NCBI GenBank assembly: GCA_964507195.1
Contig: CAZDPA010000001.1
Coordinates: forward strand, 19,648-83,647
DNA: 64,000 nt
Direction: 5' to 3'
Source of the DNA: an uncultured Salinisphaerales bacterium
GTDB taxonomy: Bacteria; Pseudomonadota; Gammaproteobacteria; Nevskiales; Nevskiaceae
Each line of letters starts with the position of its first letter. Positions within the stretch are counted from its first letter, which is position 1. Below are positions 35,272 through 52,787 of this stretch, in pieces. Made by a program: the position numbers and the translations under genes. The notes below the pieces were generated by a model, which was not told the DNA's origin, ran no database searches, and was given only the letters and a program-made list of their open reading frames with translations.

Positions 35272-36746
35272 TGCGGAGTTTTGGAAAGTCTGTTTACAAA
35301 AGCATCGATAAGACGAACGCCGAATCCAGTTGGGCCTTTCTGCACGCCGGACAGCGGGCGGGTCGCCCATGCAACACCGGCAATGTCCAGATGGGCCCAC
35401 GGTGTATCACCCGAGAATCTCTGGAGAAACTTAGCGCCAGATACCGCAGAGCCGGATCCGACGCCAAGGAATCCAGGAGCTCCGACGTTACGGACGTCCG
35501 CGATTTCTGACTCCACCAAGTAGTCTTGTCTCTTATCAAGCGGGAGACGCCACAGGAACTCCCCGCTCTCAGATCCCGCGGACTCCAGTTCGCGAGCAAG
35601 TCGATCGTCCGTACTAAATAGCCCGGCAAACTCTTCATGGAGTGTCGCCATCATTGCGCCCGTCAGTGTCGCGACATCGATGAGGCGCTGAGGCTTGTAC
35701 GTCTTCAACAGGTACGCCATCGCGTCGGCCAAGACAATTCTGCCCTCGGCGTCAGTGTTGTCCACTTCAATCGTGAGTCCTGCCAGTGATCTGATCACGT
35801 CGCCAGGGCGATACGATGTGCCGTCCACAACATTTTCGCATAGAGGAATGGCAGCGACGACATTCACGGGTGCACGCCGCTGAGCCATTGCGCGCATGGC
35901 ACCCACGACTGCGGCACCGCCCGCCATGTCGAACTTCATCTTGCTGATCGCCGGGGGTACCTTGAGGTTGAGGCCGCCCGCGTCAAATGTCAGCCCTTTC
36001 CCTACCAATCCGAGGTCGAATGACTTGGCCACACGTCCTTTCCACTGGCAGATCAACATGCAGGGTGGATGCTCGCTGCTGCGGCCTATGGCAAGCAAGC
36101 CGCCGGCGCCGATCTTTTCGAGCGCCTTCTGATCGAGAACCTTAATATCTAGCCCAACACTCACAAGCTCCTTCGCCGCACTAACGAATGCCTGCGGTGT
36201 CATCACATTCGCTGGCGCCTCTACCAGAGCACGTGACCAATTTACTGCTTCGGCCAGCTGTCGGGCGTGAGCGGTTCCCTTCCAAAAGGAGGCCGGGATC
36301 TCCAGCGCTTTTATGCTGAAATGGGACGCTGGCTGCTTTGAGCGAAAGGCCGTACACCGGTATGACGCCAAGGTGGCACCGATCGCAAAATGATTCATGG
36401 CCAACTGCGTGCCGATCGCCTGCGGTGCAGGCGGAGCAATCAATGCGGCCGATTCGACCCGCAGAGTGCGCATCGAGTCCATAACCGCAGCCCCGGCGGA
36501 TTCCCAGAATCGCTCCTCTCTTTCGAAGTCTGCCGGCCGCCCGCAACCGACAAGAATGATCCGTCGGCTATCGACGATGCAATCAACACGGTCTCCGACA
36601 GCACCTCTGAAGCTGGCCGGATGAGAGGGAATGGCGCAGTCGACCATCAAAGGTTGAAGATCCGCGCCGATCAAAAGCACCTCGGCAGCCGGCTTCTTTT
36701 TTGAGCGAGAGAATAGGGGGGATACGGTAGCGTCTTGCAAATGCAT
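35268..36746 (-). CDS. pepA: Leucyl aminopeptidase (M17 family)
   Basis: NTDAEGRIVLADA and GKGLTFDAGGLNLK motifs of M17 aminopeptidases. 492 aa. Confidence 0.92.
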   Translation of the reverse strand: MHLQDATVSPLFSRSKKKPAAEVLLIGADLQPLMVDCAIPSHPASFRGAVGDRVDCIVDSRRIILVGCGRPADFEREERFWESAGAAVMDSMRTLRVESAALIAPPAPQAIGTQLAMNHFAIGATLASYRCTAFRSKQPASHFSIKALEIPASFWKGTAHARQLAEAVNWSRALVEAPANVMTPQAFVSAAKELVSVGLDIKVLDQKALEKIGAGGLLAIGRSSEHPPCMLICQWKGRVAKSFDLGLVGKGLTFDAGGLNLKVPPAISKMKFDMAGGAAVVGAMRAMAQRRAPVNVVAAIPLCENVVDGTSYRPGDVIRSLAGLTIEVDNTDAEGRIVLADAMAYLLKTYKPQRLIDVATLTGAMMATLHEEFAGLFSTDDRLARELESAGSESGEFLWRLPLDKRQDYLVESEIADVRNVGAPGFLGVGSGSAVSGAKFLQRFSGDTPWAHLDIAGVAWATRPLSGVQKGPTGFGVRLIDAFVNRLSKTPQ

Positions 36747-36871
36747 ATTCTGATGTCCCCGAATGGTTCCGATTAGAGTTCAGATCTCGGGCAATCCGGA
36801 AACGCCCGATAGTCGTTGGTGCGGCACTATCGGAGCATCGGGACGTGGCGCCGTTCGATTGTGTTAGATAT

Positions 36872-36893
36872 ACAAGTAAGTTACTCTACTTGT
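36872..36893. promoter_or_regulatory. Operator copy E (ACAAGTA-N8-TACTTGT), promoter facing pepA
   Basis: The reverse complement reads TTGACAAGTAGAGTAACTTACTTGTATATC. It closely matches site B outside the 8-nt centre, apart from the last base shown. Confidence 0.6.
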
Positions 36894-36965
36894 CAATGAA
36901 ATCATAATGCCCTCCGGTACGGGCATGTCCGCGGTAAATCATTGCTTGGATAGGGACACCCACCT

Positions 36966-38066
36966 GTGATCGAGACGTCAGACAAGATTGTCTTTTCAAC
37001 TAATTTGAACGCCGATGTAACGGGCGCGGCAGAACGAGAGTCGTTGCTTGCCACGTCGAGTTTCGGCACTTCGTTCACCGATCACATGGTGACGATCCAG
37101 TTCTCAAGGGAGCTGGGTTGGCACGATGCACAGCTCGGTCCCCGTCGTCCGCTGGAGCTTCACCCAGCAGCCAATGCCTTGCACTATGGGCAGGCCATTT
37201 TTGAGGGGCTGAAGGCATACCGGCGACAGGATGGGTCTGTTGCGCTGTTTCGACCAGACAAAAATGCCGAGCGCTTTGTGGCGTCAGCTAACAGAATGGT
37301 GATGCCGCCATTGCCTGCCAAAATCTTCATAGAGGCGCTGAAAGTGTTGACCAGCGCAGATCAGGAATGGGTGCCTTCGGCCGACAAAGGCAGCCTCTAT
37401 CTGCGACCGCTCATGATCGGAACGACCGCCGGGCTTTCGGTGCGACCATCGGATCGATACTTGTTCGTGGTGATGGCTTCGGCTGTGGGGTCCTACTTTT
37501 CTGGCCCACCGCGCCCGTTGTCCATATGGATTAGCCAGGACACGTCCCGAGCGGTCGTAGGTGGAACCGGCGCAGCCAAAGTTGCCGGAAACTACGCGGG
37601 GTCCCTGCAGGGGCAGGCCGAGGCCACCGAGAACGGATGCGATCAGACGCTCTACGTAGATGCGATAGAGCGTCGTTGGATCGAAGAACTCGGGCTGATG
37701 AACATATTCTTCTCGTTCAATGATGGGTCGCTCATCACGCCGCCTTTGTCTGGAACCATTCTTCCCGGAGTCACGCGGGACACAATCCTGTCCCTCGCAC
37801 GCGGCAGAGGTCTGGATGTCCGCGAGGACGTGTACAGCATTGAGCAGCTCAAGAGCGACGCGGAGGAGGGGACGCTAGCGGAGTGCTTTGTCTGCGGTAC
37901 TGGTGCGGGCATAGTTCCTGTCGATCAGTTCAAGTCGAAAGCCGGCGCTTTCGGTGTCGGAAGCGGTCGCAACGAACACCCTCTTGCCATGTCACTTCTT
38001 CAGGAAATGCGAGCAATCCAGCAAGGAACGGCGCCGGATACGCATGGCTGGCTTCATTCGATCTGA
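36966..38066 (+). CDS. ilvE: Branched-chain amino acid aminotransferase (long ~360-aa type)
   Basis: GTG start. FGTSFTDHMVTIQF...LHYGQAIFEGLKAYR and NYAGSL motifs are typical of the long BCAT subgroup. Confidence 0.88.
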   Translation: MIETSDKIVFSTNLNADVTGAAERESLLATSSFGTSFTDHMVTIQFSRELGWHDAQLGPRRPLELHPAANALHYGQAIFEGLKAYRRQDGSVALFRPDKNAERFVASANRMVMPPLPAKIFIEALKVLTSADQEWVPSADKGSLYLRPLMIGTTAGLSVRPSDRYLFVVMASAVGSYFSGPPRPLSIWISQDTSRAVVGGTGAAKVAGNYAGSLQGQAEATENGCDQTLYVDAIERRWIEELGLMNIFFSFNDGSLITPPLSGTILPGVTRDTILSLARGRGLDVREDVYSIEQLKSDAEEGTLAECFVCGTGAGIVPVDQFKSKAGAFGVGSGRNEHPLAMSLLQEMRAIQQGTAPDTHGWLHSI

Positions 38067-38116
38067 TGGAGCAAATCAATGATCTGCACCATCGGACTCG
38101 GAGGTGAGGAGAAGGC

Positions 38117-39097
38117 ATGCAAACGACAGATGCCATCGTGCTAAGTGAAGTCGGTGGGCCCGATCAGCTGAAGGTCCAGTCGATCGAACTGCCGCTGCTC
38201 GGGGCGAACGACTTACTCGTGAGGCACACCGCAATAGCGGTCAACTTCCACGACTGCTACGTCCGCTCGGGCTTGTACAGAACCCTGACCCTTCCCGGCG
38301 TGCCGGGTTTAGAAGCGGTCGGAATCATTGAGGAGGTTGGAAGAGATGTCGCCGGTCTGGCCGTGGGCGACCGCATTGGTTGGGTCAGCCCACTTTATGG
38401 GGGCTATGCCGCGCGGCGTGTTCTCAATGCCGACTTGGCAATCAAGATACCAACGTTCCTATCTGACAATCAGGCTGCGGCATCCCTGGTAAAGGGCTTT
38501 ACAGTCTCGTACCTCGTTGGCAGCGCTCACCGTGTCGGACCGGCTCAAACCGTTTTGATTCATGCCGCGGCGGGGGGCGTAGGACAGATGCTTACCCAGG
38601 CGTGCCACCGTTTAGGGGCGCATGTGATCGCTACAGTTGGCAGTAGTAGCAAAGCTGCTATCGCGCGCGGAGCCGGAGCAGATGAGGTGATTTTGTACAG
38701 AGAAGAGGACTTTCTCGAACGTGTGCTGTCCTCAACACAAGGGCGAGGGGTAGACGTTGTATTTGACTCCGTAGGGGCCGACACATTTGTGAAGTCGATG
38801 CGCTGCCTCGACTACGGAGGATCTCTGGTCAACTATGGTCAGTCGTCAGGCCCTGTTCTGCCATTTACGCCGACTGACCTGGCGCAGAAGTCTCTGTCTG
38901 TCAGTCGACCCATCATCTTCCATTTCATGAGAAAGCGAGATGACCTTGTACGCCTGGCAACTGAGACGTTTGACGCATTTGACCGGGGGCTGTTCAAGCC
39001 AGTTGAGGCTGTCGCATATCCACTCTCTGAAGCGGCTGATGCGCACCGACTTCTGGAAGCTCGACAGAGTCCAGGTGGAGTCGTTCTGATTCCGTGA
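38117..39097 (+). CDS. NADPH:quinone oxidoreductase / zinc-type alcohol dehydrogenase superfamily (MDR)
   Basis: 326 aa; a GroES-like N-domain and the Rossmann motif IHAAAGGVGQ. Confidence 0.88.
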   Translation: MQTTDAIVLSEVGGPDQLKVQSIELPLLGANDLLVRHTAIAVNFHDCYVRSGLYRTLTLPGVPGLEAVGIIEEVGRDVAGLAVGDRIGWVSPLYGGYAARRVLNADLAIKIPTFLSDNQAAASLVKGFTVSYLVGSAHRVGPAQTVLIHAAAGGVGQMLTQACHRLGAHVIATVGSSSKAAIARGAGADEVILYREEDFLERVLSSTQGRGVDVVFDSVGADTFVKSMRCLDYGGSLVNYGQSSGPVLPFTPTDLAQKSLSVSRPIIFHFMRKRDDLVRLATETFDAFDRGLFKPVEAVAYPLSEAADAHRLLEARQSPGGVVLIP

Positions 39098-39974: not shown

Positions 39975-40460
39975 CTGTACGGATGGCAGTACCGCATAAG
40001 CTAAACCTGACGCTATGAAATGCGATAAAAGCTGAGTGTCCCTGAAGCGGACAGTCCTGAAGGTCTCCGTTTGGCACCTTTGCGACAGTCACACGTCAGC
40101 CCTTTGCGGCTACCACGGGTAAATCAATCATGGCTCCAGAGCAGCCATTCAGGTCTGCACATATTGCGCGCCCCTCAACACCGCTGGACATTGCTTAGTC
40201 TCAGGGGCACTAGCCGCCGTTTATCGACGTAAAGTCCAAGATCGCAGCCGCGCAGGCTTTCGGACCGGCTGGTTCTTCGCTTGGAAGAGGGCAGCGCGAG
40301 GTAGCGATAGATGCTGATCTTTCGGCGCCGCGGCCTTCGGACGAGCGTTGATCGGCTCTCGGGAGTGCTCGATCACGACAAGGTCGTCAACGCGCCAGCC
40401 TACCTCTACAGGTATTCGTACCTCGCTCATTCACTTCACACCAATGCAGCTTCAACTAGG

Positions 40461-40721
40461 ATGGCACCTATGAAAATCAGGATCGTACTCTTGGTACTTA
40501 TTGCTTCAAGTGAGTATGCACACAGACCTGTCGACGGTAGCAATTACTTTGTCGCACCAAGTCACTCTTCTGTGGAGACGGTCACGAGTGGGCACAAGAA
40601 CTGGGGGCAATCCGGTATGAGAGAGCGACAGGGAGATCGTGTTTTCGTTGAGATGGCAGAAGATCAGAAGCCGCCTCTTGGAATCTATGAAGTGAGGCTG
40701 GCACGAACTTCAAAAGACTAG
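40461..40721 (+). CDS. Small hypothetical exported protein
   Basis: MAPMKIRIVLLVLIASSEYAH is a signal-like N-terminus (ATGs at 40461 and 40470). No homology recognised. At the left edge of the AT-richer island. Confidence 0.3.
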   Translation: MAPMKIRIVLLVLIASSEYAHRPVDGSNYFVAPSHSSVETVTSGHKNWGQSGMRERQGDRVFVEMAEDQKPPLGIYEVRLARTSKD

Positions 40722-40945
40722 GCTCCGTGCGGTTAGAGACCAGTGTGGGCGCGGCGGTGGGTCCCCATCTTGGAATCTAAAGCTGCAGCAGGAGCGATGC
40801 GCTAGGCCAGGGCGCGCGGGATGAGAGCGGACACGCGGATCTCGAGCTTCCGGACTGCATTGAGAGCGATAACGGACGCGTGGATTTCCGCGTCAAACGA
40901 CGGGTGTTTGTATCTACTGTCTTCTGAAAGCAGAGCCCCGGGGAA

Positions 40946-41449
40946 TCAATCTTGTTTGCCACTCTTAAAAAGAAGTCCAAGCAATCCCTTAATTGGCGTG
41001 CTGAAGGTGTCATAGGTTGTTTCTTCCTGTAGCTCGAAAGTTCCATCCGGCATCAATTTGATGGTCTTCTTTATTGTCTTGGGCTTCTCTGGGCCCAGCA
41101 TGTAGATGGCATACAGGGCGACCAGTGCAATGGTGCCGACTTCTAGAAGCGGCATATCCCGGTCCGCACCCGATATTGCTCCTTCAACAATATGCCGGGA
41201 CTCCTCTTGGTTCGACGAGTGCATGATCCACATAAGGGCAATGTCCCGAACTAGGTCTGGCTTTGATTCAAGTTCGCGCAAAGCTTGAACAATCACCTCT
41301 TGATTCTTCGATGCGCCCTCTAGTGCGCTTCTCATTTCTGCAGGAGACATGTCCCCGGATGCCTCAAATACTGAAGACTTTAGAATCTGAAGAATGGTTT
41401 CAGGAGTCGCTTTGATAGCATTCAGTCTGCTCACTACGTTCATATCCAT
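40946..41449 (-). CDS. Hypothetical single-pass membrane protein, translationally linked to the CHAT protease gene
   Basis: 167 aa. Helical N-domain, one TM (LLEVGTIALVALYAIYMLG) and a short Lys-rich tail. Its start overlaps the last 10 nt of the upstream CHAT gene (41440-41449). Confidence 0.6.
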   Translation of the reverse strand: MDMNVVSRLNAIKATPETILQILKSSVFEASGDMSPAEMRSALEGASKNQEVIVQALRELESKPDLVRDIALMWIMHSSNQEESRHIVEGAISGADRDMPLLEVGTIALVALYAIYMLGPEKPKTIKKTIKLMPDGTFELQEETTYDTFSTPIKGLLGLLFKSGKQD

Positions 41450-44400
41450 GCTCCTTCAATTACGAATGCGTGGGCCTGCCAAGCTGGAACCCCACGACCG
41501 ATGGCCGCTTCTACGGCATAAGCTAGCGCCTTCACGAGGGGGGCCCCATTGACGAAAATGGATATCGCATCATCGAGGATTGGCAACGCCAACTCAGCGT
41601 CGATCTTCCATCGTGGCGCGACCACAGCGTTCGTCCCTACGCTTGCCAGCATTGATGCAAAACTTGTGCGCTCGTCCAGACCGGAAATCGACACAGCGCC
41701 GCCTGAGCACGCGCCCAGGAAGATTGTCCTCGGTGCGATCTTTTGGTGCTCCAGCTCGTCCCATCCGAAACAATGCGCTCTGTTGGCGTCGAGCGTAGCG
41801 CCAAAGCTATAGCCTGGCGGCGCCATCCCCATATGGTCAATGATAAGGACTATTCCACGTTCGTCCTTCGAAATCTGCCCGTGGCATAGAACCTTCAGCA
41901 GATCAGTCCCCTCGAGCAGCCTGCGAAATGCTTCAGAGTCCGCAACTCCCGGTGGCGCGAGATCGAGCGCTAGGCCATTCGCATTCGCAACTTCCTTTAC
42001 TCTGTCTGCTGACGCCTGAAGGGCAGCGCGCACGGCGCTCGTTTCGTTCGATCGCGGCGAATGCAGGAGCCCCAGTCTAGGTCGAGGTGGTGCCGAGCCA
42101 TTTGCGGCGACGGCAATCTTTATCGCATGCCAGTCTGCCGCGTAGGACGTGGTCCACTTTGGAGCAAGTGCAATATGGTAGGGGAGGCCAGACATATTCA
42201 CGTGGTCGATGAACACAACGTGCCCGCCAGCGGGCAAAACCTTCTCCAAAAGACTTTTCAATGAGTCTTCGATGAGCTTCCAATGAGGTATCTCATGGGG
42301 TTGCCCCAGCCGGCCTTGGTGCCAGTTGTCGAGTCGAGCAACAATTTTGTCAGCTGCCTTGACCCAGTCGGTTTCGGCGTTGTTCTCAATAAACTCTGTT
42401 CGCACGTTCCCCGGAGAGACAAGGGTTGAGATCCCGAATACCTTTCCAGGAACATCGCACCATTCAATGACGACGAAAGGTTCGTGAACATTCCGAATCA
42501 TTTCGGCTGTTACGACACCGTCAAACGCATCAATGGCACTGTGGCTCTGCGTACGCATTGCTTTTCGATGGGCGTTACGCCGAAGCTCGGCGAGCAGCTG
42601 GATCTCACTTGCCGACCGACCTTGGGCAAGTGCAACGAGCGTCAATCGCCCAAGGGGATCATCCAGTGGAGAAAGCAACGCCATTGTGGCAATGCTCAGT
42701 GATACGCCGCCCGCCGACTCAGCGATCGCTTGAGGGATCGCTAGCACCATGTCACTAAAGCAATCTGGATTGTCTTGAACACCCGTTATCGCAACCTCGA
42801 TCACCGTTCGAGGCTCGAGAGTCAGATCAGCCTCGAGACAGATAAGCGCGTCGCGTCTCCAAAGCGCTTCTGCTTCTGAGCATTCAAACTCCTGAGCAAG
42901 CATGGCTGCAGAAAAGCAGGCGTTATGTGCTTCCCTGACATTCCTGCATTCCATCTGCTGATCCACTCTGTTGGAGAGGCGTGTCAGAACGGAGGCGACT
43001 ATCTGGAGGTGCTCCTCCGACCTCCGGACTTCAGTTGACGGTTGTCGAATGATTGCTGAGTAGGGCACTAAGGCCGCGTCAGGGATCTCTTCTAGATCCG
43101 GACACTCCTTGCGCAGTGCCGCCACGCGCTCCTGTTGTCCAAGCTGCGATCTTATTGCAATCTCACAGACGAGTAGACCAATGCGTGTGTCCCGCAGCTC
43201 AAACCCCCCGGCCATTCGCCGCGCATCGGCGAGAGCTTCGACAGCCTCAGCGGATCGGCCCATCTGAATGAGGGTAGTCCCGAGTGACTGCAGCGGCATG
43301 TATGATCGCCCATCGGTCAACTCGACTGCACGAGAGATACAGGGCATCGCTTCTGAAAAGCGACCCAACTCTCTCAGAAGAATTCCGCGATTGAGCCATG
43401 CAGTTGCCCTGTTGCCGTCAGTCGCATCGGGATCTCTTAGAGTGACGCTCAATGTAGTTTCCGCAACATCAAGAGCGGTTATCCGCTTTCCCAAAAGGCG
43501 AAGCGCATTGCTGCGTTCAGTCCAAAGGCAGCGTTGACTCGAAAGGCTGAGCGCATTCTCCCAGGGGGCTTGTTCTTCTCCTATCTTTGCAAGGGCGAGA
43601 ACCGGCTGCCCCAGAAGTTTCATCCGCTCGCCAAACCAGGCCAGTAGGGATGCCCTCTCCTCGATGTCACCTTCCGTTGAAGGCTCAAGAAACTCGAAGA
43701 GCGTCGTAACCGCATGAGCATCCTCGAACCAAGGTAGTCTCCATGCTGCAAGCAAGGTAGATATTGAGAGCTGACTGTTGCGACCCCGTATAGAGAGGAT
43801 TAGCTCGGCGAACTGCTTCGGAGTATGTTCTTCCGAACTCTTCGCTTCCACGGACTCCGCATTGCTCGGCGATGTTTTGATGTACAGGCCGCCTTTGAGC
43901 ACATCGTTCAGAATGTCGCCATGGCCGAGGTCCTCTGTCGCAGCGTCAAGCCGTTCGAACAGCGCTCGTCGGTCCTGAGAGTCCGGCGAAGATAGAATTC
44001 CGTTGACCACTGACGACACTGCGTTCCATGCGCCCTCATAGGTGATAGTTCGAGAAATCCTCTGCGCAGATAGTTGGAAACGGTCACCGTCCTCTTCCGA
44101 TTCCGCAGATCGTGCTTGCAATCTCATAAGCAGATAGGCGTAGGCCCAATCTACAGATCGTGGAGACTCGCGGCCGAGCATGGAATGAAGAGACGTATCG
44201 ACTGCAAGAAAATGAAAGCGTATCCGGGGGTCGATATCCTTTTCTGTAATCAAATTCCAAGTGACGTTAAGCATCTCCGTCACTCGATCGGCGACGAAGA
44301 TGACAGCTCCACAGCTGTCAACCAAGCGGGCCAAGACTTCTTCTAAAGTCTTTGTCGTTGTTAATGCCGCAATTCCAATAGACCAGCTTTGAATCGTGTG

Positions 44401-44970
44401 GACGATGAGCTCGTAAATTACTTCCAACGTACGCGCACGGTCGTCAACAAGACCATCCGTACTACCGGAGTGCACGCCAAATTTCGGCACGATTCCGTGC
44501 GCGCCAACTAGCATAGCGCTCAAAATCTCGCCTTGAAGGCCTTGCCAGCAACGAACGGCTTCCTGTGGGTTTACGGGATTGAGGTGAGGGAGGGGATATT
44601 GTCGAGCGGTCGATTTCACCTTTTCGGCGAATACGGATTTGAACTCCTCTAGGTTAGCGACCCGCTGTAGAGTGGGGCTTTCACCAAGCGATTTGGTGAG
44701 TGGCGACAGAACGTCACGCGCGTTGTCTTCTGGATTGAATCCCTGGTCCAGGAGGACAAGCTTGTTCTCAACTAGAAAGTATCCGACTAGGCTCTGGGAA
44801 ATCGATTCTATTCCGCCGCAATGTGGGCAATCGGCAAGGCCAACCCGCTCCGTGTACAGATCGAAGACATCCGTTGTTCGCAGAGCCATCAATAAACGCC
44901 ATCTTTGGTCTGCTGGAGCCTCCTTTCCGCAGTCACTCGATCTACAGACAATCATGATCGCCCCCGTCAC
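41440..44970 (-). CDS. Zn-ribbon / helical / TPR / CHAT-domain (caspase-like) protease
   Basis: 1176 aa. N-terminal Cys pairs CRSSDC and CPHCG (CpXC-like ribbon). Central TPR-like helices (ATAWLNRGILLRELGRFSEAMPCISRAVEL). C-terminal CHAT dyad contexts LKVLCHGQ (His) and TIFLGACSGG (Cys). No signal peptide. Confidence 0.85.
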   Translation of the reverse strand: MTGAIMIVCRSSDCGKEAPADQRWRLLMALRTTDVFDLYTERVGLADCPHCGGIESISQSLVGYFLVENKLVLLDQGFNPEDNARDVLSPLTKSLGESPTLQRVANLEEFKSVFAEKVKSTARQYPLPHLNPVNPQEAVRCWQGLQGEILSAMLVGAHGIVPKFGVHSGSTDGLVDDRARTLEVIYELIVHTIQSWSIGIAALTTTKTLEEVLARLVDSCGAVIFVADRVTEMLNVTWNLITEKDIDPRIRFHFLAVDTSLHSMLGRESPRSVDWAYAYLLMRLQARSAESEEDGDRFQLSAQRISRTITYEGAWNAVSSVVNGILSSPDSQDRRALFERLDAATEDLGHGDILNDVLKGGLYIKTSPSNAESVEAKSSEEHTPKQFAELILSIRGRNSQLSISTLLAAWRLPWFEDAHAVTTLFEFLEPSTEGDIEERASLLAWFGERMKLLGQPVLALAKIGEEQAPWENALSLSSQRCLWTERSNALRLLGKRITALDVAETTLSVTLRDPDATDGNRATAWLNRGILLRELGRFSEAMPCISRAVELTDGRSYMPLQSLGTTLIQMGRSAEAVEALADARRMAGGFELRDTRIGLLVCEIAIRSQLGQQERVAALRKECPDLEEIPDAALVPYSAIIRQPSTEVRRSEEHLQIVASVLTRLSNRVDQQMECRNVREAHNACFSAAMLAQEFECSEAEALWRRDALICLEADLTLEPRTVIEVAITGVQDNPDCFSDMVLAIPQAIAESAGGVSLSIATMALLSPLDDPLGRLTLVALAQGRSASEIQLLAELRRNAHRKAMRTQSHSAIDAFDGVVTAEMIRNVHEPFVVIEWCDVPGKVFGISTLVSPGNVRTEFIENNAETDWVKAADKIVARLDNWHQGRLGQPHEIPHWKLIEDSLKSLLEKVLPAGGHVVFIDHVNMSGLPYHIALAPKWTTSYAADWHAIKIAVAANGSAPPRPRLGLLHSPRSNETSAVRAALQASADRVKEVANANGLALDLAPPGVADSEAFRRLLEGTDLLKVLCHGQISKDERGIVLIIDHMGMAPPGYSFGATLDANRAHCFGWDELEHQKIAPRTIFLGACSGGAVSISGLDERTSFASMLASVGTNAVVAPRWKIDAELALPILDDAISIFVNGAPLVKALAYAVEAAIGRGVPAWQAHAFVIEGAWI

Positions 44971-45167
44971 CCAAACAAGCGCCTCTACTGCATCTACGAC
45001 TCTGTGAAGGCGCTTCCCTTCACATTACAAGCATGCCCGATGCGGGTGACCTTAGAGGAGTCCGTGCTAAGGGCGATCTGACTCAATGCGACGGAGTCGA
45101 GGTCGAGGCTCTGAGGTCGCGCGTGCCTGAGCGCGGATCGACGCCCGCCAGTCGAACTTCATTTCAC

Positions 45168-45821
45168 TCATGGCTTCCTAATCGACACGACCTGGTGAGC
45201 CCGCGAACGTCTAAGCGAAAGCACATCTAGTTGAAGCTTCTCCGTTTCCAATCGAAGCCTCTCGATCTCTAGATGATGTGTACTAACACCCCTCTCTAGG
45301 ACCTCAATTTCCAGCTCCAGCTTTCGGTTTTGGAGCAGGCGAATGGCGGCCTCGTCGGCATCGTCCTTATGCCAACTCACCATTCCCCAGAAACACATGA
45401 TCATTCCAAATCCAAGTAGCGGAATGATGGACCACCAATACAGCTCGAGCGCCTTACTCCAGGGCGAAAGGTCCCTCAATTGATCCTTCAGCTTCTTTGT
45501 GGCTTCCTCAGCGTCCTTGAGTTCTTTTTCCGCAAATCGAAGGGCATTCTTTCGCTCTGGAATTGGGTATGGAACAAAGCTCGGTTGGCGTGGTGAGGTA
45601 ACGCCATCTTTCAGATCTTCAACCCAGAAGCTCAGCGACTGCGTATTCTCCCACGAGCGAAAGTGCGCCGCGGCGAGTTCGCTCTGTTGCCAACTTTGAA
45701 AACTCAGATAGGCGGCGAAAACCAGTATCAAGCCGCCTAGCAAGATCAGGCGCAAGCCCGAGATCGCAAAGAAGCGATTCAAGCTGGAAGTAGGCAGAAT
45801 AGGGAATCCGCTGAAGTTCAT
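45168..45821 (-). CDS. Hypothetical two-TM coiled-coil membrane protein
   Basis: 217 aa. TM1 is LRLILLGGLILVFAAYLSF and TM2 is WWSIIPLLGFGMIMCFWGMVSW. Heptad-like segments EKELKDAEEATKKLKDQL and LELEIEVLERG...LEIERLRLETEKLQLDVLSL. Confidence 0.6.
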   Translation of the reverse strand: MNFSGFPILPTSSLNRFFAISGLRLILLGGLILVFAAYLSFQSWQQSELAAAHFRSWENTQSLSFWVEDLKDGVTSPRQPSFVPYPIPERKNALRFAEKELKDAEEATKKLKDQLRDLSPWSKALELYWWSIIPLLGFGMIMCFWGMVSWHKDDADEAAIRLLQNRKLELEIEVLERGVSTHHLEIERLRLETEKLQLDVLSLRRSRAHQVVSIRKP

Positions 45822-45919
45822 TTGCGGCCATCCAAGTTCTCACGAAAAACCGTAATCGCGCCCGATCTCTGAAGCGACGCTGCGCCCGATTCCGGCAGCC
45901 GCTACGGCGGGTTCAACGC

Positions 45920-47899
45920 TCAGTGCGCGAGGGCGGTAGAAGTCGAATCTCTCCACATCGCGGGAATGATTTCGGCTACCTCAGCCGGATCAATTAGAGT
46001 CGTAGGTTCCTCGCGAGGAACGAAAGTGAACTCAGACAAGCTGCCGCCTGGAACTTCGCGCACTCTTTCGCCGGCTTTCGCGACCAACGCGGTTGCGGGA
46101 CGGGTTCCACTAGAGGTCACGCCTCCTGTAATTCTGATTGAGTAGATTGTTGAGGCAGGGAGCACGCTCCCTGCCGCGGTAGTGAAAGTGCCACTTTGTA
46201 CTCGCCCGTCGATGGTAGTCCCACTCTTTAATCGAACGACATCGTCGTAAACGGAGATCGCGGTCTCAATGTCGAGCACTCGGCCATCCGCTACAAATCC
46301 TACAAGCGTTGGATTGCGGCGGGCAGTTGCGATTATCCGGTTATAGAGCTTCAGGGGATCTGCGTTCTGGTTCAGGGTCTTAATGATTGTCGTTGCAAGC
46401 GTCACTAGCGGGGCCGAGATGGAAGTGCCTTGTTCATAGACGACCTGTTGCCCCCCACGAAAAACGGGGACATGACAGCCGGGCGCGGCGATAGTGACTG
46501 AGGTTCCTCGGCCAGAGAACGAAGCCAGCTTGTTGCCGGGGACCAATGCCGCAACTGATATGAGCACGGCCCCGTTTGTATTCGAGAAGTTGGCCGGGAA
46601 TACATTCTCAGCTTCCACGTCACGCTTCGAATTCCCGGCTGCTGCAACGATTAGTTCCCGGCCATTCGAGACAACATTTGCGACAGTTTCGTCTTTGCTG
46701 CCGCTTTCCCAGCTCCAGTTAACGATGATTGGCGTTCTATCCGCCAAGCTCCTCGTATAGATAAGAGATTCGGCTAACCCTGCGGCAGGGATGTCAAAAT
46801 GGGCCCCCTGTGTAGCTGTGCTGAAGGTTCTCGATACGATCGAGAGCTGCTTCAATTCCACGAAGCGTTTAAGCAACATTCGATCCGAAAACAAACTGGT
46901 GCCCCCGGCGACGCTCGACACGGCTAGGCCGTGATAGCCCATATCGTAGTCCGAGAAAGCATTGGGAAAGCCCCCCTTTGCCGGGAGATTTGTTCCGACG
47001 GTGTCATTCGGGTATCCGTTGCCGTCTAAATCTGCAACGGGAGGTGATGGGCGCTCGCCCCGTTTAGTCGCCAGATTGAGGAGGCTCGAGTCATTCTCGG
47101 AGATTCCGGTATCGACGATCACCGCGATAGCAGGATCTCGTGATATCGGCCGTTCGGGATGAGTACTCACCTCATTCAGGTAGCGCCGAAGAGTCTCAGA
47201 TATGCGTGCCGAATCGATCGGCCACTTGGAGTCGGCCCCCGAGCAAAGTGCAACTTCTGCAGGGCTCAATACTGGCTTTAGCGCGGGTACAAGCTTGACC
47301 TGCGACCCTAGCTCTGCCCCGACTACGCCGGGCGAATCGGATAGCGCGGCAAGAAAGTCAGTTGAGCTGGCAAGCACGCCCGGCATCAATGGAAAGCTAA
47401 CTGCTTTGCCGATAAACGGGAATGTGAGCTTCTGACCAGGGATCAACTTGTTGAGATCCACACCCGGGTTCAATTCTTTCAGCCGCGCCTGAGTCTGAGG
47501 TCCATCTGATCCTATGAAACGAGCTGCCAACCCAAGCGTCGAATTGCCGGCGGGTACCGTAACAATCGTTTCTGCAGATCGATACGCGCAGGGGTATACC
47601 TTCAAGGTTCTTCTTTCCGTGGATTCGAGAACTGTAGCGTCATTGAGATCTCGCGCTTGCAATCTCAATGCTTCATCCGCATACCCGCATTGGCGTTTGA
47701 GAAATTGATCCAGAGTCTCGTTCTCAAATGCGTCGATGAGTGTTGGCTGCGCGATCTCAGCGATGCGCGAATTGACGGTTTGGACATCATCCAATCGCCA
47801 AGGTGAAACACTCACAGTTACCCAGTCATCGGAATATGCGCTCTGGCACGCGCAGATTCCCAAGATCAGTACGAACCCATGTCGCTTGTGGCCGTTCAA
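45920..47899 (-). CDS. Secreted subtilisin-like serine protease (S8) with N-terminal LysM-like domain
   Basis: Signal peptide MNGHKRHGFVLILGICACQSAYS. LysM-like TVPAGNSTLGLAARF...LKELNPGVDLNKLIPGQKLTFP. S8 triad contexts VIVDTGI (Asp), GYHGLAVSSVAGG (His), AAAGNS (oxyanion Asn) and GTSISAPLV (Ser). Confidence 0.88.
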   Translation of the reverse strand: MNGHKRHGFVLILGICACQSAYSDDWVTVSVSPWRLDDVQTVNSRIAEIAQPTLIDAFENETLDQFLKRQCGYADEALRLQARDLNDATVLESTERRTLKVYPCAYRSAETIVTVPAGNSTLGLAARFIGSDGPQTQARLKELNPGVDLNKLIPGQKLTFPFIGKAVSFPLMPGVLASSTDFLAALSDSPGVVGAELGSQVKLVPALKPVLSPAEVALCSGADSKWPIDSARISETLRRYLNEVSTHPERPISRDPAIAVIVDTGISENDSSLLNLATKRGERPSPPVADLDGNGYPNDTVGTNLPAKGGFPNAFSDYDMGYHGLAVSSVAGGTSLFSDRMLLKRFVELKQLSIVSRTFSTATQGAHFDIPAAGLAESLIYTRSLADRTPIIVNWSWESGSKDETVANVVSNGRELIVAAAGNSKRDVEAENVFPANFSNTNGAVLISVAALVPGNKLASFSGRGTSVTIAAPGCHVPVFRGGQQVVYEQGTSISAPLVTLATTIIKTLNQNADPLKLYNRIIATARRNPTLVGFVADGRVLDIETAISVYDDVVRLKSGTTIDGRVQSGTFTTAAGSVLPASTIYSIRITGGVTSSGTRPATALVAKAGERVREVPGGSLSEFTFVPREEPTTLIDPAEVAEIIPAMWRDSTSTALAH

Positions 47900-48693
47900 T
47901 GTCTACAGCCTGTTGCTTTGCCTGACAAGCCGCACAGGTCAATCTTGTTTTGCTCAGACCAGACTTTCAGGAACGTATTGGCCGATGAGCTCGAAAGATT
48001 TGCCAATCGCGAAGTATCTGATGCCTTCCCGGCACTCGTTAGTTCGACCTGAGAGTTAGCCGCGATCAAATACCGAGGGCTGTTGGCTGTGTCACCCGTC
48101 GCGAACGCTGCAGAACCACTATCGCCCCGGCAAAGAGCGGCGCCTCTATTTACTCGCACATATGTAGCTGCGCTCTCTGGAGGGCTGACTACATAGGCCT
48201 CTCCTTCTCTGAACTTGCCGTCCCGACCCGAGAAGTTGGATTTCGTGCATCCAAAGCCCGTTAGAAGCACTTCGGCATCCTTACCCATGCCCTTTCCCTG
48301 GGTGTCGATTACTTCATAAGGGGCAACGATCTCCTTGCTCAGTAAACATAGTGCTAGGTCGGGCGCGTCGTTGAAAAAATCTGACGCCGGAGTGCAAGTG
48401 GCCTGAACGTCGTTTGGTAAATTGACCGCCACTCCGGCCGGGACACAATGAGCTGCGGTTAGCAGTGCCTTGCTTGCGACTAACGTGGCCCCACAGTATT
48501 TATTTCCAATCACTGAAAACATCGACGCTGGATAGTCGCTCGTGCGCGCTATCCGTGCATTGATCAGTGCTGTCCCAGTGCCGTCTTGCTTGAGGTCGGA
48601 TACTGGAATGAACGAAATGCAATCCGCAGATTTGGCAGAAGGCATTGATACAAACAATGCTGAGGCCACGGCCACTATCAGCAATCGATTCAC
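47896..48693 (-). CDS. Secreted trypsin-like serine protease (S1)
   Basis: Signal peptide MNRLLIVAVASALFVSMPSAKSA. LLTAAHCV (His), PDLALCLL (Asp) and CRGDSGSAAF (Ser). Its stop overlaps the S8 start by 4 nt (47896-47899). Confidence 0.88.
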   Translation of the reverse strand: MNRLLIVAVASALFVSMPSAKSADCISFIPVSDLKQDGTGTALINARIARTSDYPASMFSVIGNKYCGATLVASKALLTAAHCVPAGVAVNLPNDVQATCTPASDFFNDAPDLALCLLSKEIVAPYEVIDTQGKGMGKDAEVLLTGFGCTKSNFSGRDGKFREGEAYVVSPPESAATYVRVNRGAALCRGDSGSAAFATGDTANSPRYLIAANSQVELTSAGKASDTSRLANLSSSSANTFLKVWSEQNKIDLCGLSGKATGCRH

Positions 48694-48698
48694 GATCG

Positions 48699-50033
48699 CT
48701 ACTCCGCCGCTGCCCCGCCTGCTGCTGCAGTGCCACCGCCACCTGCCGGAGCAATAAGTCCCTTCAGCCTCCCTTCGACGCCATCTCCCAGGAAGGCCCA
48801 GGAAACGGAGAAGAAGAAGGCGGCTTCATTTCTTGAGTCCATTGGATCGATGGATTCGCCGACCGGGATGACATCGCCGTCTTTGAGACCCCGTGGAAGA
48901 ACATCGACCTTCCCAATATTCCCGCCTAGTGTTACGAACAACTGGTTTTGCCAAATCAGCGATACGCCAATGAGGTAGTTCAGGTCGCTAGAGTTGTTGT
49001 TGTAGGCGAGTCCAAATGTTCCGCCGAACGCCGGAGACAGCGTACTGCTCCGATTGAAGTTCCATGCTGGATCGGTCACATGGAGCATTGCGCCCAATCC
49101 CAGCGCCCAGTCGTCGTCGGCGCCCGAATTGCGACGGACAAATTGTTCCGCGACAGCGCTACCGTCTGGAGCGGGTGTAGGGGACGTCCGCGTGCCCAAC
49201 GTGTACTTATCGCTGACCAGCTTGGAAACTACGAATGCGCCGGCTGGGATGATGGACAATTCGGATGGAATCGGGGTGAATACGACAGTTGTATATGAAC
49301 TTAATTCTGTCGCCTTGTCGTCCTTGAGGACTATCTTGATTGGTTCTTCGCGCTCGTAACGAGCAAGGGCGGCTTCAAGGGCATCTCGCGCCCTTGTGTA
49401 CTTGATGATCGAAGCGGTGCTGATCGTCGTATCGGCATTCGAATCTGCGGCCTCCATCGACGCCTTCTCGTCCAGGTACGGGCCGTATTCCTCTAGATTT
49501 TCAGGACTTGCGCCGAACGCAGCGATTGCGTCCACAAGGGCTTGCGGTTCGGCAACGTTCCGCTCGATCTGAACAGCGTATCCGGCAATCCCTTCGGAAT
49601 GCACAATAATCTCCGACTCCAACTTGTCTCCACCGGCGGTTGGATCGCATTCGATGCCGCTCTCGATCAACGCGACCAACGCCGTCGTCTTCGTATTTAG
49701 GTCCGCGACTACTGCGTTGACCAATTCGTCAATGGATGCCGCTTCTGTGCTCGTGTCCTGTGTCGCTTGGTCAGTTCGTTTTGGGCGAACAGGTTTTGCT
49801 CCAATGACACTGAGCTTGAAATGACTAGCGCAAGTATTGATGACCTGAATCTTGAACTTGTCGTTCTTCTTCAGATCTAGCTGATTGCTTAGCGGGCTGC
49901 GATTGGAATGATCAATTTGAGCAATTTGAATCACTGGCGCAGGAGTGTTGCTTGGTGAATCTTCCGCATGAACAACAAGCGGCACGAGAAAGCCCACAGC
50001 TAAGACCGCCTGCGAAACGCTAATGTGATTCAT
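48699..50033 (-). CDS. Hypothetical secreted protein with beta-barrel-like C-terminal half
   Basis: The likely start is the ATG at 50033 (MNHISVSQAVLAVGFLVPLVVHAEDS signal peptide). The C-terminal ~170 aa shows alternating-hydrophobic strands (LGLGAMLHV, FGGTFGLAY, YLIGVSLIW, AAFFFSVSWAF), then a Gly/Ala tail. No family recognised. Ends 6 nt before the S1 start. Confidence 0.65.
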   Translation of the reverse strand: MNHISVSQAVLAVGFLVPLVVHAEDSPSNTPAPVIQIAQIDHSNRSPLSNQLDLKKNDKFKIQVINTCASHFKLSVIGAKPVRPKRTDQATQDTSTEAASIDELVNAVVADLNTKTTALVALIESGIECDPTAGGDKLESEIIVHSEGIAGYAVQIERNVAEPQALVDAIAAFGASPENLEEYGPYLDEKASMEAADSNADTTISTASIIKYTRARDALEAALARYEREEPIKIVLKDDKATELSSYTTVVFTPIPSELSIIPAGAFVVSKLVSDKYTLGTRTSPTPAPDGSAVAEQFVRRNSGADDDWALGLGAMLHVTDPAWNFNRSSTLSPAFGGTFGLAYNNNSSDLNYLIGVSLIWQNQLFVTLGGNIGKVDVLPRGLKDGDVIPVGESIDPMDSRNEAAFFFSVSWAFLGDGVEGRLKGLIAPAGGGGTAAAGGAAAE

Positions 50034-50278: not shown

Positions 50279-50608
50279 TTAGACTCCGATCCGATTGGCA
50301 AGGAGTCCCGACTGCGCTAGCGCTTCTTGCAATGCAAAGCCTGACTTCATGGGAACGTAGTTCTTCCTAAACTGCGCATCTATTCCCCTATATAGGGGGT
50401 GCAGGCCCAGGGAGGTCAGATGCGCAAGGAACCCAGCGATCAGCCTGCCTGCGCGAGATTTACACTCGGCGTGCGATAACGTTATTGCATGAATCCTTAA
50501 GAGCAAAGGAAGATCGATGCTGCTAACGCGTCTATGAGTGGCGGCATACTTCTGCCGCGGCGGTACAGCGTGGAGATAGCCTGTGGACTGGGTTGTAACT
50601 GATGACAT
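50279..50608 (-). CDS. Hypothetical protein (doubtful)
   Basis: The ORF-track 139-aa frame is trimmed to the internal ATG (MSSVTTQST...). No motif recognised. Its 5' end collides with the divergent YaaC-like gene start. Confidence 0.25.
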   Translation of the reverse strand: MSSVTTQSTGYLHAVPPRQKYAATHRRVSSIDLPLLLRIHAITLSHAECKSRAGRLIAGFLAHLTSLGLHPLYRGIDAQFRKNYVPMKSGFALQEALAQSGLLANRIGV

Positions 50609-51749
50609 TTTGAAGGAAACCTGGAGCAGGCTTCTGGAGTTCGCGAATATTGATGTTGCAGTCAATGCAATTGCCAGTAGGCATGGACCAGCCAGCACTT
50701 CAGCTCTGCGACAAAACTACCAAAAGCAGGCCCAGCAGATTAGATCCTGTCTCTTGCAATCGCGGGAGTACTTTGAGGCAGCCTCGATCAGTTCGTTAAT
50801 TACGAGCCCAAACCACGCCTACTATGGCTTGGTGGCTCTAGCATCGAGCATCATGCTCATGAGAGGCGATGGAGGTAAATCGCTCGACATTGTTCGGCAG
50901 GACAGATCGAACAGAAACCACGGGATGTCGTTCTCAACCAGTATTCGAAGAACATCGGCAATTTCTGATCTGAAAATATTGAAGGACAGCTTTATCGAAG
51001 TACGTCCTTCTGGAAATCTGTCTATCTGGTATGAAGTGTTGCCAGAGAAAATTCTGAACTGCGGAAAGACGATGCGTGTCGGTGAAAAATCAACACACAC
51101 CACGTTCGGCGTGGTAGGAGTTACCCCTTCGTTACCATTCGCGAAACTCGTGGGGACGAAGAAAAGTGTGCTCGATCTAATGAAGTACTGCCCAGATTTG
51201 AACGGCGAACTCCGGCGATACGGAGTTAGTCCGACTTGTTCGCGATTCAATCACGAAAAGTCTATATTCGTCAGAGACGGTAAGGTATTGGACAGCTGGT
51301 CTATCCACGGCGCAGGTTCGCCAAGTGCGCTCGAAGAACTGCTGAAGGCATTTAAGGTTTCTGCACGAAACATTGGCTCGATGTCTGTCAACATGGAAGA
51401 TGGAGACAATGGCGGAATTATCAGCTACGAATTCAAAAGAGAGGATTTCCCGATAGCGCTTAACTTTCCGAGCTCTAGAGTATCTCTAAGCTTAGAGAAC
51501 ATCTGCTATGCGGATGAAATAGACACGCACGAGTTCGTGGACATGTATATGACCGCATTCGGACTAAGCATGCTAGCTCGGTATTTTCCTGATTTATGGG
51601 TATCGTGCCTTGAGTCCAACTGTTTGTCTGCGAAGTTAATTGAGAAATTGTCCGCAGTCTTAGTGAAGAAGGCGCCTATGCTCGGCTTGTCTCTTCTTTC
51701 GGGGCGAGAATGCTTTATTAGCACTCACAGACAGCCATGGGCTCCATAG
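50583..51749 (+). CDS. YaaC-like family protein
   Basis: 388 aa. N-terminal QQIRSCLLQSREYFEAASISSLITSPNHAYYGLVALASSIMLMR and C-terminal FVDMYMTAFGLSMLARYFPDLW resemble the conserved N- and C-terminal blocks of YaaC-like proteins, recalled from memory rather than searched. Start is the GTG at 50583 or the TTG at 50610. Confidence 0.55.
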   Translation: MDWVVTDDILKETWSRLLEFANIDVAVNAIASRHGPASTSALRQNYQKQAQQIRSCLLQSREYFEAASISSLITSPNHAYYGLVALASSIMLMRGDGGKSLDIVRQDRSNRNHGMSFSTSIRRTSAISDLKILKDSFIEVRPSGNLSIWYEVLPEKILNCGKTMRVGEKSTHTTFGVVGVTPSLPFAKLVGTKKSVLDLMKYCPDLNGELRRYGVSPTCSRFNHEKSIFVRDGKVLDSWSIHGAGSPSALEELLKAFKVSARNIGSMSVNMEDGDNGGIISYEFKREDFPIALNFPSSRVSLSLENICYADEIDTHEFVDMYMTAFGLSMLARYFPDLWVSCLESNCLSAKLIEKLSAVLVKKAPMLGLSLLSGRECFISTHRQPWAP

Positions 51750-52079: not shown

Positions 52080-52295
52080 CTCAGTCACAGTTGACGAGAT
52101 ACTTCCGAGGATGCTTAACTTCCTGACATGAAAGAATATTTTCAAGTTCAGGAAATGGTGGCCGGGGACGCCACCGAAATAGCCACCCAAGTAGCTGATA
52201 AAACGCGTCAATCAGCTGACGTTTTAGAGCATATACCGGCAGATCTACCGTTATGGGGCAAACTAGATTCAGCCTGCGCGAAATAGGCGTGGTCA

Positions 52296-52548
52296 AGTAC
52301 AACCGAAGCCCCGTGCGCCGGTCCTTGGCCGGACGTCTTGCATCAGCCTCCAGCGCCTGGAGCAGCCAGTCTGCATGGGCATCGAGTTTGCGCGGCCCGG
52401 CGGGCCGCTCGTACTTCATCTCACTGCGTGCTGGCTCGTTGAGCCACTTCTTGACCGTGTTTCTCGTCAGACTGGTTCGCCGGGCAATCTCGCTGATCGA
52501 CAGGCCATCCCGGAACCGCATTCGCCGCACTTTTGCGTACATCGCCAT
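52296..52548 (-). pseudogene. istA: IS21-family transposase (IstA) N-terminal remnant
   Basis: MAMYAKVRRMRFRDGLSISEIARRTSLTRNTVKKWLNEPARSEMKYERPAGPRKLDAHADWLLQALEADARRPAKDRRT matches the HTH N-terminus of IS21-family IstA. Similarity ends after about 85 residues, and the catalytic DDE region and istB are missing. Confidence 0.8.
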
Positions 52549-52787
52549 GGTGTGCACCTCGTCTTCCTGCTGGGGCTGAAACCCGCAGGCTAGTGAAGAA
52601 CATCCTGGTCAATTTTCAACGCGCGGCAGGCCAGGGCGCCCGAGATGACGGTCAGGTCTGCAATGCGGCGCCTTCTCAGTTCTCTCGCTCCACGACAATG
52701 CAACAAAGCGCCCAACATATTTGTCACTCTCGGCGCAAACATCTGGAGCCATTCTTTTCTGGTTGTGCGGGCTTTCCGCTCCTGACA
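52296..52787 (-). mobile_element. Truncated IS21-family element (left end plus 5' part of istA)
   Basis: The outer boundary is inferred from the reverse-strand TGTCAGGAGCGG starting at 52787 (IS21-type ends begin TGT...). The inner boundary is the point where IstA similarity stops. The end assignment is tentative. Confidence 0.45.

Follow-up and report, generated by a model that had tools for sequence, protein, structure and literature searches.

Bacterial protease-effector modules consist of a caspase-, trypsin- or subtilisin-like protease that is fused to a sensor and cleaves an adjacent small latent effector (10.1101/2025.11.14.688446). The effectors described in association with such proteases are EACC1, Pepco, gasdermin, MBL, CalpT and Csx30, and also an alpha/beta-hydrolase (Evans et al. 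2025, 10.1101/2025.11.14.688446). Two other CHAT-domain proteins are relevant here: (i) DdvA, a transmembrane anti-sigma factor with a TPR-CHAT domain (PMC11506125), and (ii) BovA, the CHAT protease that constitutes the single-gene, cell-killing anti-phage system Borvo (10.1101/2024.10.26.620412). In this study, we analysed six minus-strand open reading frames (ORFs), lettered A-F, at positions 40946-50033 of a 64,000-nucleotide stretch of DNA from an uncultured Salinisphaerales bacterium (contig CAZDPA010000001.1); this whole stretch is referred to below as the window. A first-pass annotation had read all six genes, which include three proteases of different folds, as one trans-envelope proteolytic system. 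The comparison of homologous loci argues for another organization: the cluster probably comprises two independent modules, E-F and B-C (with A), together with an unassigned orphan, D, and does not form one system. The six ORFs are:

A: 48699-50033, minus strand, ORF call of 444 aa from ATG
B: 47896-48693, minus strand, 265 aa, S1 trypsin-like protease
C: 45920-47899, minus strand, 659 aa with a TTG start, S8 subtilisin-like protease
D: 45168-45821, minus strand, 217 aa, protein with two transmembrane segments
E: 41440-44970, minus strand, 1176 aa from GTG as called, TPR-CHAT protein
F: 40946-41449, minus strand, 167 aa as called, protein with a single hydrophobic helix

Most of what had been annotated at the level of single genes was borne out. 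All six reverse-strand ORFs were found, and the ORF calls give the annotated junctions, i.e. a gap of 5 nt between A and B and overlaps of 4 nt between B and C (47896-47899) and of 10 nt between E and F (41440-41449). The three protease folds were recovered with Pfam (Trypsin in B, Peptidase_S8 in C and CHAT in E), and all three catalytic sets proved intact when their residues were checked codon by codon. Hydropathy agrees with two transmembrane segments in D, one in F and none in E, as well as with signal-like N-termini in A and B and a weaker one in C. The annotated length of A (444 aa) stands, while those of E and F (1176 and 167 aa) are likelier to be 1171 and 165 aa, judging from homologue alignment and from the overlap of the two genes.

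Coupling of E and F across genomes

Genes E and F were compared across ~20 non-identical loci of Alpha- and Gammaproteobacteria and Streptomyces (L001-L004, L006-L012, L014, L015, L020, L022-L024 and L025-L031). These originate from Bradyrhizobium sp. Arg816 and a dozen metagenomic contigs (L001-L004, L006-L012), a plasmid of Streptomyces sp. NBC_00467 (L014), a Photobacterium plasmid (L015), Marinobacter segnicrescens (L020), contigs with distant members of the F family (L022-L024) and seven further metagenome loci (L025-L031). In every locus with enough sequence, a gene encoding an E-like protein (~1150-1200 aa) lies immediately upstream of a same-strand gene encoding an F-like protein (~165-172 aa). 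The two genes overlap, by 4 nt in most loci and by 10 nt in Marinobacter, and their products diverge in parallel, with identities of ~50% (E) and 55% (F) in the near clade and of 22-31% and 24-32%, respectively, in the far loci; E is 28-31% identical in the Streptomyces and Photobacterium plasmids. Relatives of E are few (7 at 44-50% identity), and 17 homologues of F were found at 46-63% identity. Decayed copies of E also occur: in L004 (2716-6226) the gene is split into ORFs of 786 and 402 aa, and in L025 (5416-5760) only the last ~108 codons are left, upstream of an intact F.

Strict coupling of a protease with one small partner across lineages, a property of protease-effector modules, was found here in three bacterial classes. 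On this comparative evidence, F is predicted to be the obligate partner of E, and E-F a self-contained, horizontally mobile two-gene unit. Homologues of A, B, C or D were not detected in the E-F loci by tblastn (E-value <=1e-2/1e-3, with S1 and S8 proteins of Rhizobiaceae as extra queries), and the neighbour tables of these loci contain no Trypsin or Peptidase_S8 Pfam calls. The expected co-occurrence of neighbouring genes with the CHAT protein was therefore confirmed for F and failed for the S1, S8 and two-transmembrane (D) genes.

These results bear directly on the possibility that all six genes act as one system, in which the cytoplasmic CHAT sensor-protease E would signal via the transmembrane proteins D and F to the envelope proteases B and C and to a secreted or outer-membrane protein A. 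The genes do lie on one strand, tightly spaced, in one island of low GC (guanine plus cytosine) content, and their products occupy complementary compartments (E the cytoplasm and D and F the membrane, with signal-like N-termini in A, B and C). Yet none of the ~20 E-F loci carries S1, S8, A or D, and none of the three S1-S8 loci described below carries a CHAT or F-like gene. Since the homologues are not syntenic, the six-gene model fails by the test that the first-pass annotation had itself set; moreover, A and D have no homologues, so no conserved six-gene system exists, and D and E are separated by 197 nt, whereas the real modules are joined by overlaps. We regard a single six-gene system as very improbable. 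In its favour, and against a complete separation, no close relative of this exact island is available in which the modules could be seen apart within one lineage, and a lineage-specific functional link between the two is possible. The apparent assembly of three protease folds in one system is best seen as an adjacency artefact of an accessory island, and in low-GC islands, comparative synteny should be used to divide dense clusters of same-strand genes before any system is called.

The CHAT protease, its membrane partner and comparable systems

Protein E contains TPR repeats (Pfam TPR_12, 6.5e-8, also TPR_1/TPR_2) and a CHAT domain (PF12770, 3.8e-7, 30.3 bits against a cut-off of 24). Its catalytic dyad, checked codon by codon, is H1030 (codon 41881-41883) and C1088 (41707-41709), the codons of the Zn-ribbon cysteines lie within 44818-44946, and hydropathy reveals no transmembrane segment; E is a cytoplasmic protein. 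A family alignment of 11 sequences (22-50% identity) showed that length and layout are kept throughout: an N-terminal four-Cys ribbon is followed by a helical region of ~800 aa that includes the TPRs and by the C-terminal CHAT domain. C48, C51, H1030 and C1088 are invariant in all 11 proteins, as are the CHAT motifs LCHG and ACS. With a Pfam match above threshold and the conserved His-Gly and Ala-Cys dyad, E belongs to the CHAT/caspase-like proteases of clan CD. Its true start is more likely ATG 44955 (1171 aa) than GTG 44970, because homologues align from there and the ENA call also gives 1171 aa.

The AlphaFold 2 (AF2) model of E has a mean pLDDT (predicted local distance difference test) of 65.9, with values >85 in the TPR core. 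Foldseek searches of the PDB returned human and yeast separase (2e-10 for 9hm7), DdvA of M. xanthus (8rw5) at 4e-9 and the Craspase protease Csx29 (8d9h_E at 3.4e-6 and 7zoq at 5e-6). The similarity to separase, DdvA and Csx29 has a Foldseek probability of 1.00 with TM-scores of only 0.15-0.30; these are low, as expected of a long flexible repeat protein, and the match is therefore taken at the level of architecture only. From sequence and model together, E is best described as a predicted Zn-ribbon, helical-repeat and CHAT protease of the separase/DdvA/Craspase type with an intact dyad.

Protein F has an acidic helical N-domain of ~100 aa, one hydrophobic helix (residues 101-119 by hydropathy, positions 41093-41149 of the window) and a basic C-terminal tail of ~45 aa with a predicted beta-hairpin. 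In the AF2 model (pLDDT 75.6), the N-domain is made up of six helices; the hydrophobic helix spans residues 104-118 and is followed by a beta-hairpin and a terminal helix. The start of F is more likely ATG 41443 (165 aa), because this gives the 4-nt overlap with E that is seen in most other loci. A profile search of 1.84 billion representatives retrieved 195 proteins at an E-value <=1e-3, all of them stand-alone and 90-250 aa long, and these matches establish F as a small stand-alone family of 195 representatives. Positions L9, M39, E103, Y113 and G136 are nearly invariant in the family, and good conservation is also seen in 'LP-V/L-x-E', which leads into the hydrophobic helix, and in the DG(S/T) turn. 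F matched nothing in Pfam or PADLOC, no credible family was found when 59 of its relatives were scanned against Pfam, and the profile gave only weak alphaRep/HEAT-like matches of the N-domain among PDB sequences. The structural check proposed by the first-pass annotation, i.e. a fold search with the AF2 model, likewise gave no known match in the PDB or BFVD. The topology of F is ambiguous: lysine and arginine are more abundant after the helix (4.6) than before it (2.3) and the N-domain is strongly acidic (net charge -9.8), so that the positive-inside rule favours a cytoplasmic C-terminus.

None of the six proteins, nor two neighbours, could be assigned to a named system with PADLOC v2, NCBIfam or Pfam. 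This agrees with the first-pass annotation, which knew of no matching system and saw no NTPase, CRISPR, gasdermin, nuclease or TIR partner; none of these was found here either. Membership in BovA, IetS, RT-Protease_XI, Csx29 and the mycosins was rejected, since all of these matches are marginal and limited to the catalytic core.

E-F resembles the protease-effector modules in that a protease with a large repeat or sensor region is encoded beside a small, non-enzymatic, membrane-associated partner, and in that the pair is mobile and found in defence neighbourhoods. It differs in both components. F falls in none of the listed effector families (it has no credible Pfam, PDB or BFVD match) and has a classical hydrophobic helix instead of a beta-barrel or amphipathic-pore architecture, and E lacks a fused STAND/Avs, diversity-generating retroelement or CRISPR sensor. 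Gasdermins in particular were not matched by A, D or F in Pfam or PADLOC; the model of F, helical with one hairpin, has no gasdermin match.

With Csx29, E shares the TPR and CHAT regions, the His/Cys dyad, the structural match and a dedicated small partner gene nearby (Csx30 in the case of Csx29), but it exceeds Csx29 by ~500 aa and carries a Zn-ribbon at its N-terminus. Identification of E as Csx29 was rejected (NCBIfam NF041237, 13.3 bits against a cut-off of 300, residues 1077-1129 only). No gRAMP/Cas7-11, CRISPR array, Csx30, Csx31 or RpoE was present among the ORFs and Pfam calls of this region of the window or of the ~20 homologous loci.

Like E, separase and DdvA have a caspase-like domain at the C-terminus that is preceded by a long superstructure of helical repeats, and DdvA ties the TPR-CHAT fold to the membrane and to the control of phage defence. 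However, DdvA has its own transmembrane helix, an anti-sigma domain and a periplasmic CHAT domain with an incomplete active site, whereas E has no transmembrane segment and an intact dyad; in E-F the membrane element is provided by a second protein, F, and there is no adjacent gene for an extracytoplasmic function (ECF) sigma factor. E was not taken as a DdvA, as it has no transmembrane or anti-sigma domain and no ECF sigma partner. Borvo is similar in being a CHAT protease, and BovA is the only PADLOC model touched by E. The match (E-value 0.0027, 14.7 bits) is confined to 57 residues that surround the catalytic Cys, at positions 583-638 of the 711 in the profile, and Borvo has no F-like partner, so this identification was rejected as well.

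The genomic contexts of E-F are diverse. Complete Gabija systems (GajA and GajB, E-values down to 1e-256) lie 1-5 kb from E-F in two unrelated loci (L003 and L004), and a fragment of the Shedu protein SduA follows E-F in Streptomyces (L014). Mobile genetic elements (MGEs), integrative or conjugative, also carry the pair. In Marinobacter (L020, 4096-14302) it is flanked by genes for a tyrosine integrase, an HNH protein and a family-B DNA polymerase of the protein-primed kind (DNA_pol_B_2, at 24.2 bits below the cut-off of 25.8). It is further found among type IV secretion system (T4SS) coupling-protein and TraF genes in L007, and near integrase genes in L008/L009 and on the Photobacterium plasmid (L015). 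The pattern, i.e. a rare pair that is patchy across phyla, MGE-borne, sometimes located in defence islands and occasionally decayed, appears typical of conflict or accessory cargo, and is no proof of a role in defence.

Several observations on these contexts may be added. The Marinobacter arrangement resembles a pipolin-type self-replicating element with accessory cargo. AAA+ ATPase genes abut E-F in L014 (4306-10293; upstream, in a tight five-gene operon that includes two small uncharacterised genes) and in L022 (749-1618; downstream, overlapping F). Similarity between the two ATPases is no more than generic for AAA proteins (26-28%), and a conserved third component of this kind was rejected. 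A second overlapping pair of a large and a small gene (1129-1180 aa and 185 aa) is present ~0.8-1.2 kb downstream of E-F in Bradyrhizobium sp. Arg816 and a related contig (L001, 14853-18796; L002, 6265-10361). It has no sequence similarity to E or F, which excludes a paralogue of E-F, and gave no Pfam or PADLOC match; it may be another uncharacterised two-gene module.

The conflict or cell-death role that had been proposed for the six-gene cluster can be kept, as a reading of genomic context, for the E-F pair only. We consider E-F to be a candidate protease and membrane-partner conflict module, so far uncharacterised and without a PADLOC v2 model, whose small component is absent from Pfam. A tentative extension of this view is that E-F could be an undescribed two-gene immune or abortive-infection system, with direct sensing that would need no NTPase, CRISPR or cyclic-nucleotide input, with F as a membrane-disrupting or signalling effector and with an AAA+ ATPase as a third component in some lineages. 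In such a system, the repeat region of E (~800 aa) would serve as a sensor or substrate-binding platform and E would be held inactive until triggered by a phage or other invader. Activated E might then cleave F, or engage and release it, whereupon the hydrophobic helix and the basic beta-hairpin tail of F would perturb the membrane and cause growth arrest or death. This order of events, from sensing by E through cleavage or release of F to action of its membrane segment, is the likeliest mechanism in our view and is offered with similar reserve. We infer cleavage of F by E, the membrane-active effector role of F and a phage trigger by analogy with protease-effector modules (10.1101/2025.11.14.688446). 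Should E-F prove to be a defence system, it would provide a new effector family for protease-gated immunity and a minimal bacterial relative of the separase/Craspase-type proteases, activated without an RNA guide or NTPase.

A number of points weigh against the immune reading. Defence genes are neighbours of E-F in only 3-4 of ~15 independent contexts, and several contexts consist of plain metabolic genes (L003 upstream, L006 and L026). No PADLOC system model was passed by E (its matches were marginal and confined to the catalytic core), and no copy of E was found in IMG/VR viral contigs. The model of E is only moderately confident, and its TM-scores are low. The ambiguous topology of F is a further difficulty, as the positive-inside rule would place the N-domain outside and leave just the 45-aa tail in the cytoplasm with E, and F, instead of being a substrate, may have the role of a tether, an inhibitor or a sensor.

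The last point leads to the main rival reading, a regulatory or signalling role of E-F. Here F would control E from the membrane, as a sensor, a tether or an inhibitor akin to anti-sigma factors or securin, and the substrates of E would lie elsewhere, as in DdvA-, HetF- or separase-securin-like arrangements. The closest folds to E do include the transmembrane anti-sigma protein DdvA (TPR-CHAT; PMC11506125) and separase, which is held by securin; furthermore, an external helical domain of 100 aa, as favoured by the charge of F, would be expected of a sensor, and the weak HEAT/alphaRep-like similarity of this domain is typical of binding modules. On the other hand, in the loci read E-F is joined neither by a gene for a sigma or transcription factor nor by any other conserved third gene, and a patchy, MGE-borne, cross-phylum distribution with decayed copies (L004 and L025) is expected of accessory or conflict cargo more than of core regulation, so that we hold a regulatory role to be unlikely.

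The mobile contexts might also mean that E-F serves its carrier, as an addiction or exclusion module (maintenance of a plasmid or of an integrative and conjugative element, or entry exclusion), and not phage defence of the host. The occurrence on plasmids (L014 and L015), beside T4SS coupling-protein and TraF genes (L007), near integrases (L008/L009, L015 and L020) and near the pipolin-like PolB (L020) is compatible with this. MGE context does not, however, discriminate between addiction and defence, because defence systems themselves ride MGEs, and chromosomal contexts that do not look like MGEs occur as well (L003, L006 and L026); such a role seems rather improbable. A candidate conflict module of protease and membrane partner is the reading of E-F that we retain.

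The trypsin-subtilisin pair and the orphan genes

Protein B matches Pfam Trypsin (2.9e-9) and has the triad H82 (48448-48450), D112 (48358-48360) and S192 (48118-48120). Protein C matches Peptidase_S8 (3.8e-15), with D263 (47111-47113), H323 (46931-46933), N423 and S493 (46421-46423); its catalytic domain is preceded by an N-terminal region of ~230 aa and followed by a C-terminal extension of ~100 aa. Residues 124-161 of C, a possible divergent LysM, reach only 13.2 bits against the Pfam cut-off of 20.9 (E-value 0.091); a homologous S8 protein (L016) has a weak LysM match at the equivalent position (19.1 bits, E-value 0.0013). Among solved structures, the closest relatives of B are extracellular elastase-like enzymes and the best matches of C are secreted subtilases (deseasin MCP-01, 5e-12). 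Two other identifications of C were rejected: (i) IetS of the IetAS (Gao_Iet) system (PADLOC E-value 0.069, 9.4 bits, and no ATPase gene in the cluster), and (ii) type VII mycosin (TIGR03921, 52.1 bits against a cut-off of 278.75, partial catalytic core only).

The best PLSDB matches of C are S8 genes of three Rhizobiaceae plasmids, namely R. rhizogenes pColt5.8a, a Shinella plasmid and S. medicae pSymA. In all three, a trypsin-like gene directly precedes the S8 gene (overlapping it in two of the three), and all six encoded proteins have hydrophobic signal-like N-termini. In plasmids, B matches only the trypsin-like gene of the pColt5.8a pair (33% identity). A CHAT or F-like gene was not found near any of the three pairs. 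B and C probably represent a separately conserved, translationally coupled pair of secreted proteases, to judge from gene order and predicted signals. What tells against this part of our interpretation is that only three such loci were found, at 25-33% identity. Close relatives of C were not found in GTDB genomes.

B and C are similar to secreted degradative proteases (deseasin MCP-01, subtilisins and elastase-like S1 enzymes) in their complete triads and signal-like N-termini, and unlike them in forming a conserved S1-S8 gene pair and in the long N- and C-terminal extensions of the S8 protein. The likeliest site of action of the two enzymes is the envelope or the cell exterior, with a role in degradation or pro-protein maturation. 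The pair is, as far as we found, uncharacterised, and constitutes a second, smaller lead, on Rhizobiaceae plasmids. Tyrosinase genes stand beside two of the three Rhizobiaceae pairs (L013, 3577-5241, and L017, 1713-4640), and the neighbour on pSymA encodes an S8-tyrosinase fusion; this proximity is a weak hint at maturation of a pro-protein by the S1-S8 pair.

The remaining two genes are orphans. A has no homologue but itself among 5.8e9 clusters and no match in Pfam, NCBIfam, PADLOC, the PDB or plasmids. It lies 5 nt from B and is probably co-transcribed with B-C; the corresponding slot upstream of the S1 gene on pColt5.8a (L013) is occupied by a gene for an unrelated 167-aa lipoprotein. D has transmembrane segments at residues 17-35 and 131-149 and a charged helical C-terminal region, yields only a sub-threshold DUF3301 match in Pfam and forms a singleton cluster. 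No relatives of D were found in the metagenome scan or in plasmids, nor in any of the E-F and S1-S8 loci, and by this comparative evidence D belongs to neither module.

The low-GC island and its surroundings

The cluster has a GC content of 0.53-0.556, compared with 0.57-0.64 in most other 2-kb bins of the window; similar values (~0.55) are seen in a few bins located at 12-20 kb and 62-64 kb. The first-pass annotation had placed the six genes in the most AT-rich part of the window. Their low GC content is confirmed, but the minimum among the 2-kb bins (0.508) falls at 50-52 kb, just beyond the edge of the cluster. Both GC and GC at third codon positions are lower in the genes of the island than in the flanking housekeeping genes. 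In line with the two-module organization, the region ~40.0-52.7 kb is probably a low-GC accessory island between housekeeping genes, in which independent cargo is stacked. A scan of the cluster for promoters and terminators was uninformative, with fewer promoter-like sites than in shuffled sequence.

Further features of the island and its edges are:

35268-39097 and 54515-56008: flanking genes for aminopeptidase, aminotransferase, oxidoreductase and acyl-CoA ligase-like proteins
40311-40721, plus strand: ORF of 136 aa between the CN-hydrolase gene and F
40799-40824 and 52623-52648: pair of imperfect direct repeats, 85% over 26 nt, one close to each end of the island
50583-51749, plus strand: gene for a YaaC-like protein (PF14175, 1.5e-20), divergent from the cluster
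52081-52557, minus strand: ORF with helix-turn-helix (HTH)-type matches only

Each of the four flanking, housekeeping-type proteins clusters with no other of 15 billion sequences at 90% identity, so that the source lineage seems poorly sampled. The 136-aa ORF is also gene-called in the JGI copy of the contig and has no family match. No tRNA gene is present in the 64-kb window, and the direct repeats were not accepted as attachment (att) sites, being just weak imperfect matches of 26-31 nt. The YaaC-like gene, located in the bin of lowest GC content, is part of the same island as A-F; its product has no PADLOC match, and in other loci it is not linked to E-F or S1-S8. The ORF with HTH-type matches, at the far edge of the low-GC stretch, is possibly the remnant of a transposase or regulator gene.

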